NCBI GenBank assembly: GCA_963669405.2
Contig: CAXXHF010000001.1
Coordinates: 194,493-258,492 of the forward strand
Direction: 5' to 3'
Source of the DNA: Flavobacteriaceae bacterium
GTDB lineage: Bacteria; Bacteroidota; Bacteroidia; Flavobacteriales; Flavobacteriaceae
Length of the DNA stretch: 64,000 bases
Shown here: positions 1,339-28,152 of the stretch, piece after piece
Layout: each line of letters starts with the position of its first letter
How positions within the stretch are numbered: position 1 is the first letter of the stretch
The notes under the pieces: model-generated
Databases searched by the model: none
Told to the model about the DNA's origin: nothing
The model's input: only the letters and a program-made list of their open reading frames with translations
Position numbers and translations under genes: made by a program

Positions 1339-2414
1339 GCAGAATGAAATTTTTGAAATCACTTGTATTCACATTGCTTTTTCAAACTGGGTTTGGTCAG
1401 GTTAATTTCGAGACGGCAAAATCTGAAAGCGGAATTATTGGTACAGACTTTGTTGGTTGGAATATTGGGTACTCCTTCTCCAAATCTGAGGCAAACTTCG
1501 TGTTTAGTAAAAATGAAAGCACAGGATTTGAATTTTACGAGAAGGATGGTATTACTTATAGAAATCTTGATAAAGCTTCTCGTTTGAATTTGGGTTTCAA
1601 GGAGTCCGATAAAAAGCATGGAACAGATTTTAAAGGTACTAGCTTAAAAATTGGAGTTCCAATTTCAGATGGCACCAGAGGGTTGTTTGAGGATGGTAAT
1701 TTTAATCCTGGATTAGACATATCATACGATCTCAGCTGGGGTAATGACCAATTTAGCAGTAATTTGACGTATTTCTTGATGCGATTTAGTTATGGATTAA
1801 AAGAGAATAAATTCGGATTCATTGATACTGATAACAACGTTCAAATAGATAAAAGATTAACTCAAAAATTCGGTGCTACGTTTGGAGTGAATTTAATCTC
1901 AACATGGATAAAAACTAAAGATGGTAAATCAGCTGGTGAAGATCTGATTAAAGATAACTTCATTGTTGCATTTACTAGTTCCTTTGATTATAATACAAAT
2001 CCTGTTATAGATTTGAAAACCAAGGAGTTTGTTACATTAGAAAGTTCAGCTATGAACGGTTTTGTTCAAGAGACAACAACAGCCTTTGACTCTGAGCAAG
2101 AAGCTTTTTTTGCAATTACCCCCAAGATTGATATCATTTGGACACCACTTTCACATAAATATATTGATGTGGAGGAGACTTTACCTAGAATAGGTCTTAT
2201 GAGTTCTTTATCTTCTAGATATAATACTCAAAGTGATAAATTAGCTTGGAACTTTGCTATTGGCCCATCAATTCATCCTAAGAATGTATCGTCAAGAATT
2301 ATTGCCGCTTTGCTAGCAGAATTTAATGATTTTAATGATAGTACTGGAAATAAGGATTTTGATGATATATTTTCTGTAAATCTTTATATAGGAATCCCAT
2401 TACCTTTTAAGTAA
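1335..2414 (+). CDS. Secreted, possibly outer-membrane beta-rich hypothetical protein (359 aa)
   Basis: N-terminal signal peptide, alternating aromatic/polar strands, C-terminus VNLYIGIPLPFK. Confidence 0.75.
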   Translation: MSRMKFLKSLVFTLLFQTGFGQVNFETAKSESGIIGTDFVGWNIGYSFSKSEANFVFSKNESTGFEFYEKDGITYRNLDKASRLNLGFKESDKKHGTDFKGTSLKIGVPISDGTRGLFEDGNFNPGLDISYDLSWGNDQFSSNLTYFLMRFSYGLKENKFGFIDTDNNVQIDKRLTQKFGATFGVNLISTWIKTKDGKSAGEDLIKDNFIVAFTSSFDYNTNPVIDLKTKEFVTLESSAMNGFVQETTTAFDSEQEAFFAITPKIDIIWTPLSHKYIDVEETLPRIGLMSSLSSRYNTQSDKLAWNFAIGPSIHPKNVSSRIIAALLAEFNDFNDSTGNKDFDDIFSVNLYIGIPLPFK

Positions 2415-2440
2415 TCAACAGCAATTAATGTCATTACATA

Positions 2441-3145
2441 CACATTCCCCTACTCTCCTACCGTCGCTTCGGGCAAAGCGTATTCCATTGTATTTTTAAG
2501 AAGAAAATTAAGGAAGGAAAAAATCTAAAGACGCTTATATATAACTTTGCTTTTTTAGCGCAAAGCAAAGTTACATAACGCGAAATTATAGTACAAATGT
2601 GTCTGTGTAGCCGTTTTGCCCAATCGTGCCATTTGATAGCTATAATTCCATATTATGTAAAATATCCCAGGAAGTCCCGTAGACACAATAAACTATTGTC
2701 TGGGGGTCATTAAACTTCAGGCTCTTGGCTTTGATGCCAAACAATGAACATCTCGTTATTTGTAGCTATAATCAGACGCTATGTAAAATTGCCGCGCCCA
2801 ACCGCCAGATTGCTAAATAAAATCAAATTGCTTTATGGCAATTTATTTTAACCACAATTAGCCACCGCTTGGCCACACCAAAAAAAGCTAACTTTTGTCT
2901 TTTGTTTGAAACTCGCGTATTCGGGGAAAATCCCGCAAGATTTTTTTCTACGGCATTCTCGTCAACGTTCCGCAAGAGTACAAAATTACTCTGCGAGATA
3001 ATTTCTGTACACTTGCTCAAATCTATCATTTGTTTGAAGCTTTCAGGGTTTGATATGTCTTTTTTCCTTGATGAAAAAAGAAACAAAAAAATCAAGGCTG
3101 CACAAAACTTTGGAAACAATGTACGGCTCAATCGCTATATTTTAG
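2441..3145. repeat. Direct repeat B, copy 1: 705-bp non-coding segment resembling the oriT/leading region of a flavobacterial conjugative element
   Basis: Near-identical to 9436-10140 (offset 6995); partial copies at about 21450-21650 and 25934-26004. The oriT call is inference. Confidence 0.85.
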
Positions 3146-3303
3146 AAAACATTGTAACTGGTTAAGATTGCTTGGAACTCACTTTAAAGCCTTGTTATTG
3201 TTAAGGATATGTATTGCTAGCCCCCTAAAATATGCACGCTCATTTCTCCTATTGTTTTGACCAAAATTTTATGAGGCCGTTTTGCAGTTACGAAAATTAA
3301 GTA

Positions 3304-3331
3304 TATATTTGCATAGGTAAATGTTACCTAT
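3304..3331 (+). promoter_or_regulatory. Bacteroidota -7 box with overlapping palindromic operator
   Basis: TATATTTG at 3304-3311; ATAGGTAA-atg-TTACCTAT at 3313-3331, just before the MarR start. Confidence 0.65.
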
Positions 3332-3334
3332 ACA

Positions 3335-3760
3335 ATGAAAACAAAAAAAGACTTATATCAGAATGTCGCTGTTGAACTACTAACTACGCATAGTTGGTAT
3401 ATGCATCAATTGAAAACAGTTTTAAAACCATATGACATTTCTCCTGCTCAATATAACATATTGAGAATTCTAAATGGCGCAAAAATCCGCCCAGTTTCTG
3501 CAGCTTATTTAAAAGACCAAGTAATTGATAAAGGTAGTAATATTACACGTTTAATTGATAAAATGGAAATTAAAAAATGGGTCACACGAAACCTTTGTGA
3601 AACTAACAGAAGGCAGATGGATATTGACATTACTGAAGAAGGTAAGCGAGTTTTATTTGAGGTTACAAAAGAAATTGATGAACTTATTAAAGTCCTCTAC
3701 TCTATTACTGAAGATGAAGCTAAATTAGTTTCAAAAATTTTAAACAAAATTAGGAGTTAA
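3335..3760 (+). CDS. MarR family transcriptional regulator
   Basis: LKPYDISPAQYNILRIL...NITRLIDKMEIKKWVTR...NRRQMDIDITEEG. Confidence 0.93.
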   Translation: MKTKKDLYQNVAVELLTTHSWYMHQLKTVLKPYDISPAQYNILRILNGAKIRPVSAAYLKDQVIDKGSNITRLIDKMEIKKWVTRNLCETNRRQMDIDITEEGKRVLFEVTKEIDELIKVLYSITEDEAKLVSKILNKIRS

Positions 3761-3827
3761 AAAAATTTAATTTAATATTCTCCTATACAAATATTACCTA
3801 TACAAGTATAATTTAAAATTAAATATT

Positions 3828-4471: not shown

Positions 4472-5302
4472 ATGAAACGAAGACATTTTCTGAAATTAAG
4501 TTCAACCGTAGGAGTTCTAATTGGAACTTCAGGTTGGGCTTTTTCAAACATCTTTATTACAAAAAAAATACAAAAAATGAAATTACATATAAAATCAAAA
4601 AAAGAACAACATAGCGTTTCGCTTTTTGGTGGTAGCCTCCACGAAAATAAGCCTTTGTCTGGTGCCCCATTGTATTCTAACCTAATTTATTGGGCAAATG
4701 TAGAAGCCATAGAAGAAGGTGCTTTTCCTATGCATCCACACGAAGGAATTGAAATACTAACTTTCATTTTTGAAGGTGGTTTAGAGCATTTTGATACAGC
4801 AACAAACAAGTGGACTCCTTTACCGGCAGATGGTGTACAACACATTCAAGCTGGAACTGGCTTGCAACATTCAGAAAAATATTGGAAAGGTTCAAGAGCT
4901 TTTCAAATATGGTTTGACCCAGATTTTAATAAAGCACTAAAGAAAGCACCTTACTACAAGGATTATCAAGCAGATGCTTTTAAATGGGTAAATGAAAATG
5001 GTTATGAGGTAAAATCATATGCAGGAGAAGATGCTCCAATACAAACGGATGCTCCTGGTATATCTGCTAAACGATATAAATTACCAAAAGGAAATCATAC
5101 TATTGATTTGAATAAGAATAGCTTTCATTCATTTTATTTAATGGAAGGTAGTCTTGGAATTGAAGGTAATGAAATGTTAAAAGACAGTTTTACAAAGGCA
5201 AACGATATAGAAAAGATACATCTAAATGCTACAGAAAATAGTGAGCTTTTTATTTTACAGTCTCCAACTAAAATCAATTATAAAAAAATAACTGATAGAT
5301 AA
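4472..5302 (+). CDS. Pirin family protein with twin-arginine-like N-terminus
   Basis: FPMHPHEGIEILT...AGTGLQHSE...FQIWF; ATG at 4472 gives MKRRHFLK. Confidence 0.88.
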   Translation: MKRRHFLKLSSTVGVLIGTSGWAFSNIFITKKIQKMKLHIKSKKEQHSVSLFGGSLHENKPLSGAPLYSNLIYWANVEAIEEGAFPMHPHEGIEILTFIFEGGLEHFDTATNKWTPLPADGVQHIQAGTGLQHSEKYWKGSRAFQIWFDPDFNKALKKAPYYKDYQADAFKWVNENGYEVKSYAGEDAPIQTDAPGISAKRYKLPKGNHTIDLNKNSFHSFYLMEGSLGIEGNEMLKDSFTKANDIEKIHLNATENSELFILQSPTKINYKKITDR

Positions 5303-5303
5303 A

Positions 5304-5531
5304 ATGATTGAACAAAAAGAACCTAAAAAATGGAAAATGGCAATCATAGTTTGGATTGCCATTGTTCCCTTAATCTTTACCATTATGCCATTTTTCAAAC
5401 CAAGGTTAATTGCTTTAGGTTTAAATTCTATATTGGTCGAATTACTTTTAACAACTGTTTTGGTAATAATAATGGTTTATGTAATGCTACCTGCATTAAT
5501 AAAATTATTTAGAAATTGGCTTAATAAATAA
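5304..5531 (+). CDS. Small two-helix membrane protein
   Basis: 1-nt gap after pirin; PKKWKMAIIVW...LFRNWL. Confidence 0.75.
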   Translation: MIEQKEPKKWKMAIIVWIAIVPLIFTIMPFFKPRLIALGLNSILVELLLTTVLVIIMVYVMLPALIKLFRNWLNK

Positions 5532-5682
5532 CTAATCATTTCACACATTATGCTTCCCTCCTACGTCGTCCATAAAAAGTGTTTACTCTCCCACTCTATT
5601 TTACATAATATAATTGTTTGTGGACATGCTTTTGGATTGTTACCTTAGCTATTCGATAACTAACAAATTGTATCTTTGATAT

Positions 5683-6303
5683 ATGAATGTACGATTAACG
5701 AAGGAGCAAAAAATTAAGGTGCTCAACTCCAAGGATATCTATGCCATCATGCAGCAGGTATTGTTGCGGGAAAATAAAATACGGAGAAACCAAGAGCATT
5801 TCTGGGTTGTGGGTCTGGACAACCAAAACAAGATACTTTTTGTAGAACTCATTGGTCTTGGTGCTGTAAACCGTGTTAATGCAAACCCGCCAGATGTGTT
5901 CCGTATGGGGATTTACAAACTGGCCGTAAAAATGATACTGGTACACAACCACCCTAGCGGTAATATTGAACCTTCTAATGAAGACAGGGACTTTACCGAT
6001 AAGATGCTAAAGGTTGGAGCGCTTATAAACATTGAGGTTATAGACCATTTGGTGATTTCGGAAACCGATTACACGAGTTTTGGTGACAAAGGCATTATTA
6101 AAGAGTTGCAAGGCTCTGGACTGTTTGAGATTGTGGAACGTGAAAAGGAAGAGATTAAGGCTTGGAAACTACGTCTGGAACGTGAACGTGCTGTAAAAGC
6201 AAGCAAGATTGAAATCGCATCTAAAATGAAGGATGATGGTGTGGATATAGATATAATTAAAAAATATACTGGACTAACGAAGCCTGAGATTAAGAAACTG
6301 TAA
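5683..6303 (+). CDS. radC: RadC-like JAB domain protein
   Basis: ILVHNHPSGNIEPSNEDRDFT...IDHLVI; -7 box TATCTTTG at 5671-5678. Confidence 0.93.
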   Translation: MNVRLTKEQKIKVLNSKDIYAIMQQVLLRENKIRRNQEHFWVVGLDNQNKILFVELIGLGAVNRVNANPPDVFRMGIYKLAVKMILVHNHPSGNIEPSNEDRDFTDKMLKVGALINIEVIDHLVISETDYTSFGDKGIIKELQGSGLFEIVEREKEEIKAWKLRLERERAVKASKIEIASKMKDDGVDIDIIKKYTGLTKPEIKKL

Positions 6304-6386
6304 GGCTGAGTGCTGCCTCTCTCCTATTGGTTTAGACAAAATTTTATGAGGTCAAGTTTGATATTGAGATTCTACTTTAAATAATA

Positions 6387-7988
6387 TTATTCTTTATAGA
6401 TTCTAGGCTTTCTCCTTTTTCCCTTTTCTTTTCTTCTTTGTGTCTTTCCAGCCTCTTGACTATACCTTTGCATACTAGTTTTTTTTACTTCTCTTTCTAT
6501 AATTCCAAAATGAGCAGACAATTGCCGCTTGATACTTTTTGAATCCATCCCATCATATTCTATTCCTTTGGCATTTTTATAAGTTTTTTTTGCAGAGTTT
6601 CTTGCATAGCTTAAAAAATTCCTTTTACCAAGATGGGAGTATCTTTCATATAGTTGTTTTTTAAATATTTTATCTGATTTACCATATTTACTATAAGACA
6701 TCATAACAGTCTTTACAATTCGGCCTTTCATTTTTCTAAAATACCTAGATAAACTACCTGGTCTTATATAAATATCCTGCCCATTAAATTCGAAACCAAG
6801 ATATTGCAAGTTTTTATAATATTTTTGTTCGTTATCGATAGTAATACTAGCCTTTTCAAGATTAATTTTCTTTTTATTAAACGCTCTATATTTACCATTA
6901 GAATTTTTAAAAAACTCTAAATATTCAGTTTTCTTATCTTGAATTACCAGTTTATACTTTTTAATTTCTTTTAAGACTAAATCATTTAGAAATTCAGCAT
7001 CTTTAGTATCACAAATAAGCAATAAGTCATCACAATATCTATAATACTTAAAGCCTATTTTTTGTCCTAGTTTAAATAACCACTCATCAAAATCAATTAA
7101 GTAAATATTTGAGAGTAATGCACTCATTGAAGAGCCTTGGGGAATTCCTCTATATTCTTCAGTTCCATCATTCATTTTTTTAGGTAAATTGGTAACAAGA
7201 AGTCGTCTATCTCTTATTAAATTAAACTTATCTTTAAATGATTTCCCTGCTATTGAATCAGGTATTAAATCTAATAGCGTTTGCCATCTTTCACCAGCTT
7301 TTTTCTTTTCATTTAGGTTTATTTTGAAATGTCTTAAAATACTATCCATTCTAACATAATTATATTTTGTTAGAGATCGAAACACCTTATATTGATCTAT
7401 TGGTAACTGTTCATTTCCTATGACTTTACACCATTTCTCTTTCAAGGTAAAATGGTCAATATTATCAAAATAACCTGTTATATCTAATGCTATGACTGCA
7501 CACTCTTTACTTTGCGTAAAGTGAGCTATAACGTCATCAAATGCTTGTTTAGCAAATTGAATATTGCATTTACCATCTAAATCCGTTCTATATGCTAAAA
7601 CAGAATCAGAAAACCCTTTTCTTAAAATATAATCTTGATATTGTTCTGTTAAGGCAAAAGAATAGAATGCATATAAGTAAGAATCAAAATGCGAGGCAAA
7701 AGAAATTGGTCGAATTTTGGTTTCTAATCCATAAAGCAAATGCTTCTTTTGATATCTGTAGCGTGGAGTCTTTGTAAGTATTTTAACGAACGGTAAAAAG
7801 GAGTGTTTACTTACAGCTTCTAGAGTTGGGTCACTTACTAAATCTTGAAGCTTCTTACTTGAATTTAGGAAGTTATAATATGGATCAAATTGTGGATACT
7901 TTTTTAACTCAAATTCTTCTTCAGAAGTTCCAAGTTTTTCACAGAATCTTTTCCAAATATCTTCTGTGTATAATGATGCATTTTTCAT
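6387..7988 (-). CDS. drt2: Antiviral reverse transcriptase, DRT2 (UG2) family, 533 aa
   Basis: HSFLPF, RPISFASHFDSYLY, ALDITGYFDNIDH, GIPQGSSMSALLSNIY, YYRYCDD, LQYLGF, RYSHLGKRNFLSY match DRT2 motifs as I recall them. Confidence 0.88.
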   Translation of the reverse strand: MKNASLYTEDIWKRFCEKLGTSEEEFELKKYPQFDPYYNFLNSSKKLQDLVSDPTLEAVSKHSFLPFVKILTKTPRYRYQKKHLLYGLETKIRPISFASHFDSYLYAFYSFALTEQYQDYILRKGFSDSVLAYRTDLDGKCNIQFAKQAFDDVIAHFTQSKECAVIALDITGYFDNIDHFTLKEKWCKVIGNEQLPIDQYKVFRSLTKYNYVRMDSILRHFKINLNEKKKAGERWQTLLDLIPDSIAGKSFKDKFNLIRDRRLLVTNLPKKMNDGTEEYRGIPQGSSMSALLSNIYLIDFDEWLFKLGQKIGFKYYRYCDDLLLICDTKDAEFLNDLVLKEIKKYKLVIQDKKTEYLEFFKNSNGKYRAFNKKKINLEKASITIDNEQKYYKNLQYLGFEFNGQDIYIRPGSLSRYFRKMKGRIVKTVMMSYSKYGKSDKIFKKQLYERYSHLGKRNFLSYARNSAKKTYKNAKGIEYDGMDSKSIKRQLSAHFGIIEREVKKTSMQRYSQEAGKTQRRKEKGKRRKPRIYKE

Positions 7989-8510
7989 CTTTTTAATGGG
8001 ACATTAGCCAGATAGCAGTATCAGACATTAACTAATCTGACTAATGTACAATGTGTTTCATTGCTTAACTTGTGACTGCCTCAATCACATAAGGATTTTC
8101 ACCTTTACAAGTCTTAATCCACCCTTGGCCAATCAAATTATTATTTGCATAATAAGATGTGACACTTCAGATTGCAAAAACGCAACCTTCTCAAGGTTCA
8201 GGTAGTGTGTCTGCACTACTTTCGTTTTACCTTGAGACCTCGCAGAATATGTTTCGGTTCTACTCGGACTTTCTAGTTTGCACTAGTGAGGTCTTTAAAC
8301 AAATATAAATATGTTATGCTTAATAATTACTTCTTTAACAGCTTATGTATCAACTGTCTACTAGGTTTAATAGTAGATGTTATGACACAAGAGATATTAT
8401 CAGAGAGTTTGTCTGTGCAGCTGCACGTGACAAACTTGGTATACTTCTTGCGTTGTATACTAATAAATATTAACTTAAACAATTTACCCCCCAAACTACA
8501 TTGAAGGCAA
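7989..8510 (-). ncRNA. Putative DRT2-associated ncRNA; 5' end uncertain (about 8294 or about 8510)
   Basis: Dense hairpins: 8001-8047 (12 bp), 8071-8089, 8138-8155 and 8273-8286 (both GCAA loops), 8203-8219, 8358-8378, 8406-8436; lies directly upstream of the RT. Confidence 0.75.
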
Positions 8511-8630
8511 TAATTATATTTCAATATTTGTGCCATAATTTGAATAGGACAAGTTGTCAGATGTAATTAAAATAAGTAATTTAAATCCATTCCACAAACA
8601 TTGCACTACTCCCCTACGTCGTTGAATGTT

Positions 8631-9287
8631 TCACTTGAAATGAAAAAAATTCCAGTCCATAATAAGGTTATTTCCATCTTGTACATTTCCAATCTTATCC
8701 ATCAATCGGTATCTGTGTCCAGCTCCTACTAGGAATACAGCTTTTTTTGGTTTGTTTAGTTTGAAGTAATTTTGAATTAGATTAATCCAATGGTTTTCGC
8801 GTATGTCATTCCATTTTAACCACTGTGCGTAAAAATTTAATAACCCGTTATATTTCTCTTTATTCTTATTTATGAAATACTTCTCCATCGAATTTTTATC
8901 TCTACATATTTTGTCACAGTCTAGACTGTTTAAAAATGGGAATCCCTTTAAGTATGTCTCATTGATAAGCAATCGAGTTGCACCAGCATATTCTCCCATT
9001 TCTCGTTTAATTAACTTAAACATTGCCTCAAGACGTTGGTCAAACGGATCTTCATTAACATCAACTGGAACTATTTCTATAGGTTTTCCTTCTTGGTTTA
9101 ATCTTTTAATTACGTTTATTTCTGGAGTGTTAACATCAGTTCTCTTTAAATATTGAGGTAACTTTTCAGGTGAAGCCTCGCAAAAAACTACTTGAGGATT
9201 TATTTTCTGAATAATTTTATATAATTCTTCAGACGTACAAGCTCCATCTTCGACATGGGCAGTTCCTAAAACAATCAAAGTACTCAT
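8631..9287 (-). CDS. Hypothetical protein (218 aa); paralog of 1-640
   Basis: Complete ATG ORF; GTAH, FCEASPE and VFLVGAGHR motifs. Confidence 0.85.
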   Translation of the reverse strand: MSTLIVLGTAHVEDGACTSEELYKIIQKINPQVVFCEASPEKLPQYLKRTDVNTPEINVIKRLNQEGKPIEIVPVDVNEDPFDQRLEAMFKLIKREMGEYAGATRLLINETYLKGFPFLNSLDCDKICRDKNSMEKYFINKNKEKYNGLLNFYAQWLKWNDIRENHWINLIQNYFKLNKPKKAVFLVGAGHRYRLMDKIGNVQDGNNLIMDWNFFHFK

Positions 9288-9435
9288 ACATCTATTTATT
9301 TTACTTCTTTAAGTCAAATGTTAGACCAACTGATAATATTTTTAATTTTTAATAAAATCACTGACAAAAATTCAAATAATATAAGAAGATGGTGTCGCTA
9401 TGTCATTAAATTTTCCTTTTCTTATCCATTTCACA

Positions 9436-10140
9436 CACATTCCCCTCCTCTCCTACCGTCGCTCCGGTAAAAGAGTGTTCCATTAAGTGTTTAAGAAGAA
9501 AATTAAGGAAGGAAAAAATCTAAAGACGCTTATATATAACTTTGCTTTTTTAGCGCAAAGCAAAGTTACATAACGCGAAATTATAGTACAAATGTGTCTG
9601 TGTAGCCGTTTTGCCCAATCGTGCCATTTGATAGCTATAATTCCATATTATGTAAAATATCCCAGGAAGTCCCGTAGACACAATAAACTATTGTCTGGGG
9701 GTCATTAAACTTCAGGCTCTTGGCTTTGATGCCAAACAATGAACATCTCGTTATTTGTAGCTATAATCAGACGCTATGTAAAATTGCCGCGCCCAACCGC
9801 CAGATTGTTTTTAAAAAATTAAATGCTTTATGGCATTTATTTTTAAACTCAATTCGCCACCGCTTGGCCACACCAAAAAAAGCTGGCTTTTGCCTTTTGT
9901 TTGAAATTCGCGTATTCGGGGAAAATCCCGCAAGATTTTTTTCTACGGCATTTTCGTCAACGTTACGCAAGAGTACAAAATTACTCTGTGAGATAATTTC
10001 CGTACACTTGCTCAAATCCGTCATTTGTTTGAAGCTTTCAGGGTTTGACATGTCTTTTTTCCTTGATGAAAAAAGAAACAAAAAAATCAAGGCTGCACAA
10101 AACTTTGGAAACAATGTACGGCTCAATCGCTATATTTTAG
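9436..10140. repeat. Direct repeat B, copy 2
   Basis: Near-identical to 2441-3145. Confidence 0.88.
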
Positions 10141-10315
10141 ATTATTTAGCGTTAAGAGAATGTCCTGTGGACATTTTTAGCTAAATACGATTTGAGGATG
10201 GATGTATTTCTATCGAATCATCCACTGGATAATTCTCACGAAATAACCTATTGTTTTACCAAAATTTTATGAGGCCGTTTTAGATCCGTCGTTCTATTTT
10301 ACATAATGTTAGAAA

Positions 10316-10716
10316 CTAAGCATTTAGTTTATCTATCATATTTTCTAACGAATACTTTGCTAATGCTGGAATTGTATGGCGCGTAACTTTAATTTCCCAA
10401 TTGGATAAACTAGGCATTAAGGTTACATTGTTTTCTATGAAAATATCTGAATTGGATTCTGCTAATGCTTCAGATGGAATGAAATAAAACACTGTTGGCT
10501 CTTTATCTATGATCAATACTAAAACGATAAATAAATCGCTCCTCAATTCGCCTAAATCTTCTTTGGATATTTTGATGCTTAATTGTGCTGCATCTTTATT
10601 GATGGGTTGTAAGTATAATTGATTGTCTCCTATTAAGAAATCAACCCCTTCCCTCCCATCGGTTTTGTCAATTAATTCTATTTTAATTCTGATTTTAGAA
10701 ACTCTAAGGCAATCAT
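10316..10716 (-). pseudogene. Hypothetical gene, apparently frameshifted near its start
   Basis: ATG at 10716 overlaps the HTH stop (ATGA) but reaches TAG after MIALEFLKSELK; the long frame resumes IELIDKTDGREG. Confidence 0.5.
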
Positions 10717-10919
10717 TTTGTAGAAACCAATAGCTCTCTAATATCCACATCTAGGATTTCTGCTATTTTTTTTAAATCTTTTAGGTGCGGTTGTGATTTA
10801 TTATTGCAAAAAGCCGTTACAGAAGTAGTACTTTTTCCAAGTTCTTCCGCGAGCCAAACTTGCGATTTTCCTTGAATTACTAATACTTCTTTTATTCTAT
10901 TTATCCTTTCTATTGCCAT
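10713..10919 (-). CDS. XRE/Cro-like HTH regulator
   Basis: NRIKEVL...SQVWLAEELGKSTTSVTAFCNNKSQP...IAEILDV. Confidence 0.92.
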   Translation of the reverse strand: MAIERINRIKEVLVIQGKSQVWLAEELGKSTTSVTAFCNNKSQPHLKDLKKIAEILDVDIRELLVSTK

Positions 10920-10980
10920 AATTATTAGGTGTAATTTACCCTAAATATATAATATAGACTTATTAAAACTTAAGTTTAAA

Positions 10981-11032
10981 TTAGATTTAAGTAATCTAAA
11001 CTTGCATTATTAAAATTTAAATTATAAGTTTG
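10981..11032. promoter_or_regulatory. Palindromic operator and -7 box between divergent genes
   Basis: TTAGATT-taagt-AATCTAA at 10981-10999; TAAGTTTG at 11025-11032. Confidence 0.5.
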
Positions 11033-11113
11033 AATTAACTTTATATAAGTTAAAATTATATAAATGTAATTTTTAATTAAATTTTTATTGTTAACAACTT
11101 TATTTCAATTTTT

Positions 11114-11305
11114 ATGCCACATCCAAAGTATACTAAAGCCGACCTTGAGAAAATCATACTTACGCAACTGGATAACCTAAATGCAATTCACGACTTGTTA
11201 CGCATCATGAAACTGCAAAATGAACTTATTGATAATGCCAATAAGAAATTAAAGGATGAAGTGATTGATTTTAAGAAACGCGTTAATTATGGATCAAAAA
11301 AGTAA
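11114..11305 (+). CDS. Small hypothetical, coiled-coil-like protein (63 aa)
   Basis: ATG ORF downstream of a -7 box; higher GC than its flanks. Confidence 0.65.
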   Translation: MPHPKYTKADLEKIILTQLDNLNAIHDLLRIMKLQNELIDNANKKLKDEVIDFKKRVNYGSKK

Positions 11306-27885: not shown

Positions 27886-28152
27886 TGTAATGTAATTTAT
27901 TAATACTTGTTACTAGGCAAAGATAGTGCCAATAAATTATAATACAACTAATTAGCGTACATGATTTATTTTACCCATGCTTTCCAACCCATCTCTACAT
28001 CTAAATTTGCACTGACAAATCACTGATAATTACAAATTAAAAGGTAGATAAACATCTCTCATACTAATGAATATGAGCCTATTCCGAAAATTGTGATTCT
28101 AAAAACTTACGGGGCATATTATAAACCTTTGGATTGGCTTCAGAGTTTTATC

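Follow-up and report, generated by a model that had tools for sequence, protein, structure and literature searches.

Which segment of RNA would the reverse transcriptase (RT) of this locus copy, and what gene, if any, would the copy hold? The locus lies in a 64,000-nt stretch of a Flavobacteriaceae genome (assembly GCA_963669405.2, contig CAXXHF010000001.1, positions 194,493 to 258,492; hereafter the window, numbered from its first letter), in a 640-nt gap separating two minus-strand genes, one of which encodes P0001, an RT of the DRT2 (UG2) family. An earlier note on this DNA had proposed that a noncoding RNA (ncRNA) from the gap is copied into a hidden "neo" gene, an endless open reading frame (ORF) made of 108-nt units. 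Comparison with related loci agrees with the note on the kind of gene, its strand, and its frame, and places the boundaries elsewhere, at conserved GUU motifs 180 nt apart. We consider it likely that this DRT2 system would make an endless neo ORF by concatenating copies of a GUU-bounded 180-nt template.

Identity of the locus

The DRT2 setting assumed by the earlier note was borne out by several kinds of comparison. P0001 matched the Drt2 profiles of PADLOC (PDLC03757; E value, 2.6e-128) and NCBIfam (NF041746), as well as the Pfam family RVT_1, and aligned over residues 43 to 503 with the solved structures of Klebsiella pneumoniae DRT2 (KpnDRT2; PDB 9c0i and 9lje; E value, ~1e-68). The catalytic Y-x-D-D motif is intact (YRYCDDLLL). 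These matches identify the locus as a DRT2 anti-phage system, the anti-phage role being assigned by family.

Relatives were drawn from a genome scan (7 loci), a phylum-wide genome search (9 more), and a metagenome scan (74 loci). The comparison set comprised 42 related loci, and the rules for boundaries and frame were scored over 43 loci. Named relatives belong to Aequorivita, Bacteroidales, Cyclobacteriaceae, and Flavobacteriaceae, which makes the locus a member of a Bacteroidota-specific branch of DRT2. The closest relatives are L018 and L019, with 89% and 87% RT identity, respectively.

Template boundaries and unit length

In the aligned upstream regions, the elements occur in the order TGGCAY-N5-TTG (promoter-like), hairpin, GUUUAAGUUA, variable region, UUCAUAAC, UGUUYAA, and long 3' region, of which GUUUAAGUUA, UUCAUAAC, UGUUYAA, and the long 3' region are all conserved. 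Each of the 43 loci has GUU(UAA) after the 5' handle hairpin (GUU-1) and GUU(YAA) before the 3' scaffold (GUU-2). The sequence GUUUAAGUUA at GUU-1 was kept in all aligned loci, and UGUUYAA stood directly 5' of the scaffold in 43 of 43. The two sites in the window are copies of one 8-mer, TTAAACAA, found at 8295 to 8302 and 8475 to 8482 with a spacing of exactly 180 nt.

The distance from GUU-1 to GUU-2 was divisible by 3 in all of the first 38 loci, which had 13 distinct lengths between 114 and 180 nt. Five additional loci were then found with a rebuilt profile, and the rule was predicted before their distances were computed. These came to 150, 126, 162, 153, and 144 nt, and all five fit the rules for both boundaries and frame. 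Combined, all 43 loci had a distance divisible by 3, and 15 different lengths were seen over the range of 114 to 180 nt; units measured 168 to 180 nt in the subclade of the window versus 150 to 153 nt elsewhere. Despite differing at 34 to 38 of 180 bases, L018 and L019 retain both GUU sites, a unit of 180 nt, and its open frame. The unit is thus likely the GUU-bounded segment from 8301 to 8480, 180 nt or 60 amino acids long, and not a 108-mer.

The 108-nt proposal had the cDNA jump between two ATACA sites (8458 to 8454 and 8350 to 8346), giving a repeat of 36 amino acids that starts at ATG 8382 behind a junction-built promoter, CTTG-N19-TAGGTTTA, and predicting the junction ...TTCTTGCGT|TGTATCAACTG.... 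As a reading of the letters, most of it was accurate. TGTAT is present at 8346 to 8350 and at 8454 to 8458, 108 nt apart, the plus frame with codons from 8346 is stop-free, an ATG stands at 8382, and the circular translation was reproduced as the note wrote it. The arithmetic of the joint is also correct, with CTTG (8447 to 8450), a spacer of 19 nt that spans the hypothetical joint of 8453 to 8346, and then TAGGTTTA (8362 to 8369), and ACA is the motif that KpnDRT2 uses.

These raw features are nevertheless neither above chance nor specific. The stop-free plus frame runs from 8277 to 8501 (75 codons), far past the 108-mer, and the 108-mer has no stop in three of its six circular frames, so its openness is uninformative. 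The same 225 nt hold 27 direct repeats of at least 5 nt, compared to 23.8 in shuffles, including four 8-mers (three of them at in-frame spacing) and 17 five-mers, of which TGTAT is one. The nearest relatives do not keep the TGTAT pair and read AGCAT/AGTAT (L018) and AACAT/TGTAT (L019) in its place. ATG 8382 is kept only in these two and is lost in L079 and L001; the conserved start is 8316. The junction-built promoter survived in one half, since CTTG holds a conserved TTG, and failed in the other, since the supposed "-7 box" TAGGTTTA reads TGGGTGTA in L018 and TGGGTGTT in L019. The imperfect inverted repeat described at the unit ends matches at 7 of 12 positions ungapped, and in the consensus fold each ATACA is paired in the stem of a different hairpin, not beside the handle and scaffold. 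Finally, the universally conserved ATG module (8311 to 8318) and both GUU sites fall outside the 108-mer, and a unit of this kind is hardly credible. Two other units were rejected as well: a 99-nt unit from 8355 to 8453, whose TACTA pair (8359/8458) is another chance 5-mer, and a unit starting at TGT 8250, a position inside the covarying scaffold.

A closer rival keeps the GUU mechanism and moves the landing site. The subclade of the window has a third, internal GUU(U)AAG site (8337 to 8339; RNA 8339 to 8337, within CUGUUAAAG), 39 nt from GUU-2 and close to the right half of a stem enclosing the greater part of the template. Landing there would give a unit of 141 nt and 47 amino acids (8340 to 8480), with 8301 to 8339 and the conserved ATG copied in the first round only. 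Its distance of 39 nt keeps it in frame, and in some relatives its match to GUU-1 equals or betters that of GUU-2, being an exact 11-nt copy of the GUU-1 region in L001 (2661 to 2671) and an 8-nt match in L018 and L019; moreover, ACA-2 of KpnDRT2 is the right half of a basal stem, SL2. In the window, however, the internal site has only UGUU in common with GUU-1, compared to 8 nt for GUU-2, and the homologous AAGUUGA is out of frame elsewhere (by -23 in L022 and by -29 in L058 and L073), whereas all 43 loci have GUU-2 in frame. Repeats made this way would lack the conserved ATG module, which would be left at the cDNA 5' end without an upstream promoter, and the in-phase, stop-free spacing from GUU-2 to the ATG would go unexplained. 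Because the site is out of frame in some clades and its repeats would lack the ATG module, landing at the internal GUU rates as quite improbable. The site could permit occasional jumps that stay in frame, as an alternative to GUU-2, or could be what is left of a duplication by which the unit grew longer in this subclade.

Two other in-frame direct repeats of 8 nt were seen inside the unit. One, ATGTTATG, occurs at 8311 to 8318 and 8377 to 8384, 66 nt apart, and the other, TACTTCTT, at 8328 to 8335 and 8442 to 8449, 114 nt apart; the latter is also found in L019 and L079 and not in L018 or L001.

Reading frame and start codon

The earlier note had put the RNA on the minus strand and the hidden gene on the plus strand, in a frame that the comparison upholds. 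Antisense frame 0, counted from the GUU junction, was free of stops in 43 of 43 loci, while the other antisense frames had 2 to 22 stops per two units in nearly all loci, the exceptions being L033, L040, and L048, in each of which one of them is also open. The 180-nt unit of the window is open in frame 0 across the theoretical junction. All 38 loci checked for a start codon had an in-frame ATG 6, 9, 12, 15, or 21 nt past the predicted junction, the codons before it being free of stops, and UUCAUAAC, the RNA-sense motif of the ATG module, is conserved.

An ordinary small gene could produce part of this pattern. The ORF from ATG 8316 to the TGA at 8502 to 8504 would encode 62 amino acids antisense to the RT leader RNA and might be expressed from the chromosome with no concatemer involved; such a linear ORF would equally force insertions and deletions in threes and keep the frame open. 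Alternatively, the RNA could serve for something other than gene synthesis, as divergent DRT2 clades may use other mechanisms (Tang et al., PMC11100668). A linear gene, however, does not account for the direct repeat at both ends of the template in every locus, nor for a phase that is kept relative to GUU-2 in what would be its 5' untranslated region. An ATG that is always in phase with GUU-2 across a stop-free gap is expected if codons are read through from the previous unit, and an untranslated leader would need neither property. In addition, the chromosome has no promoter-like element upstream of the ATG and a conserved one at the 3' end of the ORF, and the RT is a clear homologue of an enzyme shown to make concatemers. 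On balance, a small chromosomal gene or another use of the RNA is unlikely, and concatenation of the 180-nt unit is the preferred reading.

One locus, L005, from a Flavobacteriaceae metagenome-assembled genome, has an RT frame (2254 to 3797) in which an uninterrupted translation meets 35 stops, and it lacks any ORF of 200 amino acids or more. Its upstream template is nonetheless intact, 168 nt long and open, and the RT either has decayed or carries insertion and deletion errors of a long-read assembly.

Structure of the noncoding RNA

The region upstream of the RT gene encodes, on the same minus strand, a structured ncRNA of ~520 nt with strong covariation. In the scaffold, RNAalifold predicted 76 pairs from 14 loci, 49 of them with compensatory changes, with a covariation term of -12.98; the scaffold terminates with the invariant GUCCCAUUAAAA immediately ahead of the RT ATG. 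Folded singly, the RNA of the window (7989 to 8535) had a z score of -4.99. A consensus fold of six close loci divides the template into three hairpins, and the locus thus shares the order of the KpnDRT2 ncRNA, with a handle, a template with three hairpins, and a scaffold. An Rfam search of positions 5000 to 11000 with E values up to 1 returned only two matches, both at chance level, and none to a DRT2 RNA family.

The RNA strand also contains a 69-aa ORF (8327 to 8536, minus strand) that overlies the candidate promoter as well as the handle and template. In many loci the corresponding sense frame is almost free of stops (0 to 2 per two units). The ORF was judged spurious as a gene, and its openness most likely mirrors the lack of stops in the antisense frame.

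Promoter-like elements

A logo of 35 nonredundant units, read on the neo strand and numbered from the junction, has TTGGCA at -45 to -40, TTG at -33 to -31 (82 to 91%), and TAACTTAAAC at -10 to -1 (77 to 100%); past the junction there is an A at +1, an A at +7, and then the ATG. The codon at -33 was TTG in 28 of 35 units, compared to a TTG share of 18% among the other leucine codons, an excess that places the constraint at the nucleotide level. The candidate neo promoter is TGGYAY-N5-TTG-N20-TAACTTAAAC, which is complete upstream of the junction. With both boxes on one side, such a promoter would not be built by the junction, even though the gene would be circularly permuted. On the chromosome, the candidate element is on the 3' side of the ORF and faces away from the gene; only in a concatemer would it come to stand ahead of an ATG, that of the next unit.

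The element can be read in two ways, both of them candidates. As a Bacteroidota -33/-7 promoter, it would be TTG-N20-TAACTTAA, with the right spacing and an imperfect -7 box that ends in AA rather than TG. As a sigma-54-like -24/-12 promoter, it would be TGGYAY-N5-TTG, with the right geometry and with rpoN present in the genome. The GC doublet of real sigma-54 promoters is nearly invariant, yet just 13 of the 35 internal motifs have the -12 C, and TTGA is the usual reading upstream of the ncRNA; because this C is mostly absent, the sigma-54 reading is kept only as a candidate.

Two copies of the TGGYAY-N5-TTG motif are conserved (loci L001 to L082), one ahead of the ncRNA and the other, on the opposite strand, within the template. 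In most loci the spacing between the former copy, TGGCAY-N5-TTG, and GUU-1 is fixed. The window contains 9 occurrences of TGGYAY-N5-TTG, against 2.1 expected, others including 11106 to 11119 and 27918 to 27931, both on the minus strand. Pairing of the upstream UGGCAC with GUGCCA in the template was considered and rejected, since the identity stops at the shared consensus. A second element, cTGNCA-N4-TGNCa, is conserved in most loci ~10 to 15 nt upstream of the TGGCAY motif (8546 to 8559 on the minus strand in the window, CTGACAACTTGTCC; ATGACATAATGTCAT in L002 and CTGCCATATTGTCCT in L035) and might serve to bind an activator or act as an operator. Template hairpin T2 is formed by a similar palindrome, TGTCAG...CTGACA.

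Proposed mechanism and predicted product

These elements suggest a cycle in which the RT would bind the ncRNA whose DNA immediately precedes the RT gene on the minus strand (handle, 8507 to 8488; template, 8480 to 8301; scaffold, 8297 to 7989) and, by analogy with KpnDRT2, would copy the template from its 3' end toward the handle. The nascent cDNA end, ...TTAAAC(AA), templated by GUU-1, could reanneal to the identical GUU-2 180 nt downstream on the RNA. Copying round again would yield a tandem array of 180-bp units with the junction ...ATATTAACTTAAACAAATATAAATATG... (in longer form, ...GTATACTAATAAATATTAACTTAAACAAATATAAATATGTTATGC...). The antisense strand of such an array would have 60 sense codons per unit and no stops, making neo an endless ORF, and each unit would bring its own ATG (8316) 15 nt past the junction and a candidate promoter at its 3' end, ahead of the next ATG.

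The product is predicted to be a hydrophobic repeat of two helices. AlphaFold2, given one 60-aa unit with a 35-sequence alignment, placed helices at residues 2 to 33 and 39 to 56, with a predicted local distance difference test (pLDDT) score of 74.9. The grand average of hydropathicity (GRAVY) of the repeats had a mean of +0.87 (+0.77 for the repeat of the window), and the best 19-residue window exceeded 1.6 in most loci. A protein of this type would presumably arrest growth of the infected cell.

Several observations weigh against this account. P0001 scored 382.5 bits against the NCBIfam Drt2 profile, 7.5 bits short of the equivalog cutoff of 390, which marks it as a divergent member of DRT2. 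No conserved ACA was found at the template boundaries of the compared loci, where the flanking repeat is GUU(UAA)/GUU(YAA), and no sigma-70 -35/-10 pair is split across the junction, the conserved elements all lying upstream of it. With a jump motif other than ACA and a promoter that the junction does not split, the analogy to KpnDRT2 is incomplete. The GUU sites were marked by motif and by eye, before any length was computed, and in the window the internal GUU would also yield an in-frame unit, of 141 nt. Substitutions between close pairs were spread evenly over codon positions, with all three frames alike, and comparison of synonymous and nonsynonymous changes in these pairs gave no sign of purifying selection at the amino acid level. 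The coding case therefore rests on the frame and length rules rather than on the ratio of nonsynonymous to synonymous change, and only frame and length are visibly constrained in the neo unit. This absence fits the low template conservation reported for KpnDRT2.

Neighboring gene and features of the reverse transcriptase

Upstream of the ncRNA is a 218-aa gene (8631 to 9287, minus strand) with weak similarity to TraB/PrgY/GumN-type proteins (E values, 0.003 in Pfam and 5e-4 in NCBIfam); PADLOC gave no matches for it. P0001 itself is ~100 amino acids longer than the KpnDRT2 RT; it has an insertion between aligned blocks at residues ~215 to 280, and its C-terminal tail (residues ~505 to 533) is rich in lysine and arginine (KTQRRKEKGKRRKPRIYKE). 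Either the insertion or the tail may contact the enlarged scaffold. Coordinates of the features are collected in Table 1.

Table 1. Features of the DRT2 locus, in window coordinates
Feature	Position	Strand	Remarks
DRT2 (UG2) RT gene, P0001	6387..7988	-	533 aa, uninterrupted ORF
3' scaffold of ncRNA, ~310 nt, several helices	7989..8297	-	RNAalifold
GUU-2, putative landing site, RNA 5'-UUGUUUAA-3'	8295..8302	-	GUU at 8300-8298; 8-nt direct repeat of the GUU-1 site
Predicted ncRNA template; plus strand = one neo unit, 180 nt, 60 codons: KYKYVMLNNYFFNSLCINCLLGLIVDVMTQEILSESLSVQLHVTNLVYFLRCILININLN	8301..8480	-	GUU-bounded
Conserved putative neo start codon ATG, in ATGnTTATG module (8311-8318)	8316..8318	+	15 nt past predicted junction
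Template hairpin T3, long, branched	8336..8399	-	Consensus fold of 6 close loci; ATACA 8350-8346 in 3' stem
Template hairpin T2 (UGUCA...UGACA)	8416..8432	-	Consensus fold of 6 close loci
Template hairpin T1	8434..8464	-	Consensus fold of 6 close loci; ATACA 8458-8454 in 5' stem
Candidate neo promoter: TGGTAT-N5-TTG (8437-8450), 20 nt, TAACTTAAAC (8471-8480)	8437..8480	+	3' end of unit
GUU-1, putative take-off site, RNA 5'-UUGUUUAA-3'	8475..8482	-	GUU at 8480-8478, 7 nt 3' of handle hairpin
5' handle hairpin of ncRNA	8488..8507	-	24 loci: 8 pairs, 6 with compensatory changes
Candidate ncRNA/RT promoter, TGGCAC-N5-TTG	8522..8535	-	Sigma-54-like -24/-12 geometry, TTGA rather than TTGC; putative function

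Comparison with known systems

Synthesis of a hidden gene by an RT has been known since 2024, and the present locus would follow the same logic with another jump motif and unit length, another layout of the promoter, and a product of another character. KpnDRT2 has a 281-nt ncRNA with a handle hairpin on its 5' side, a scaffold on its 3' side, and between them a template of 120 nt that folds into three hairpins. Two sites, ACA-1 and ACA-2, flank this template, and the growing cDNA jumps between them; in the concatemer that results, the junction splits a sigma-70 promoter, and an ORF without stops, neo, runs antisense to the ncRNA (Tang et al. 2024, PMC11100668; Wilkinson et al. 2024, PMC12039810). 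Structures of KpnDRT2 are available as PDB 9c0i and 9c0j. The locus described here resembles KpnDRT2 in its homologous RT (E value, 1e-68), in an ncRNA directly upstream on the same strand with the same order of handle, three-hairpin template, and large scaffold, in a short direct repeat flanking a template whose unit length is divisible by 3, and in a single stop-free antisense frame with an ATG shortly past the junction and a repeat predicted to be alpha-helical.

There are also differences. The jump motif is GUU(UAA) instead of ACA, the unit is 180 nt (114 to 180 nt across the clade) instead of 120 nt, the ncRNA is ~520 nt with a scaffold of ~310 nt instead of 281 nt in all, and the RT has 533 rather than 425 amino acids. 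In place of a junction-split sigma-70 pair there is the candidate TGGYAY-N5-TTG-N20-TAACTTAAAC, complete on the upstream side, and in place of a Shine-Dalgarno sequence there is an A-rich leader, which is usual in Bacteroidota. The predicted Neo repeat is strongly hydrophobic here (GRAVY, +0.77 in the window).

In the work of Tang et al. (PMC11100668), the Neo predictions fell mainly within the KpnDRT2-like clade, and neo proved hard to annotate elsewhere. The present locus likewise falls outside that clade, and a pipeline built on ACA sites and sigma-70 promoters would miss its neo; here, in contrast, the neo rule is explicit and holds in 43 of 43 loci. Among the papers searched, none linked DRT2 with Bacteroidota, and the supplement text of Tang et al. 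that was searched contained no match for Bacteroid* or Flavobacter*.

In telomerase and in DRT10, too, a short repeat at the template ends realigns the nascent DNA for the next round. The homology of up to 8 to 11 nt seen here is nearer to an alignment region than the 3-nt ACA is, whereas the template of telomerase is 4 to 8 nt long, that of DRT10 is short, and the product of both is noncoding. Tentatively, and with more doubt than confidence, the Bacteroidota branch of DRT2 (at least 43 loci) might be regarded as a distinct "GUU class" of gene-synthesizing RTs, which would jump by a GUU-centered repeat of up to 8 to 11 nt in a manner resembling telomerase alignment, use units of 38 to 60 codons, encode a hydrophobic, membrane-protein-like Neo repeat of two helices, and be expressed not from a junction-split promoter but from a whole one that waits at the 3' end of the unit until concatenation brings it ahead of the next ATG. 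The sigma-54-like TGGYAY-N5-TTG motif would in this class also stand ahead of the ncRNA/RT operon, which suggests that one regulator or sigma factor may control both the arming and the firing steps.

The case also illustrates how far a plausible reading of a single sequence can go, since an ACA pair, an open frame, and a promoter look-alike gave the right gene and frame and the wrong boundaries. The rules published so far, with ACA...ACA, a sigma-70 promoter in two halves, and ~120 nt, were drawn from a single proteobacterial clade (PMC11100668). A second explicit rule set, followed by 43 of 43 loci, suggests that the jump motif and promoter layout are replaceable and that template length can vary by half, while continuity of the frame is kept. 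It opens the annotation of hidden neo genes in Bacteroidota and gives a precise predicted junction for this genome.

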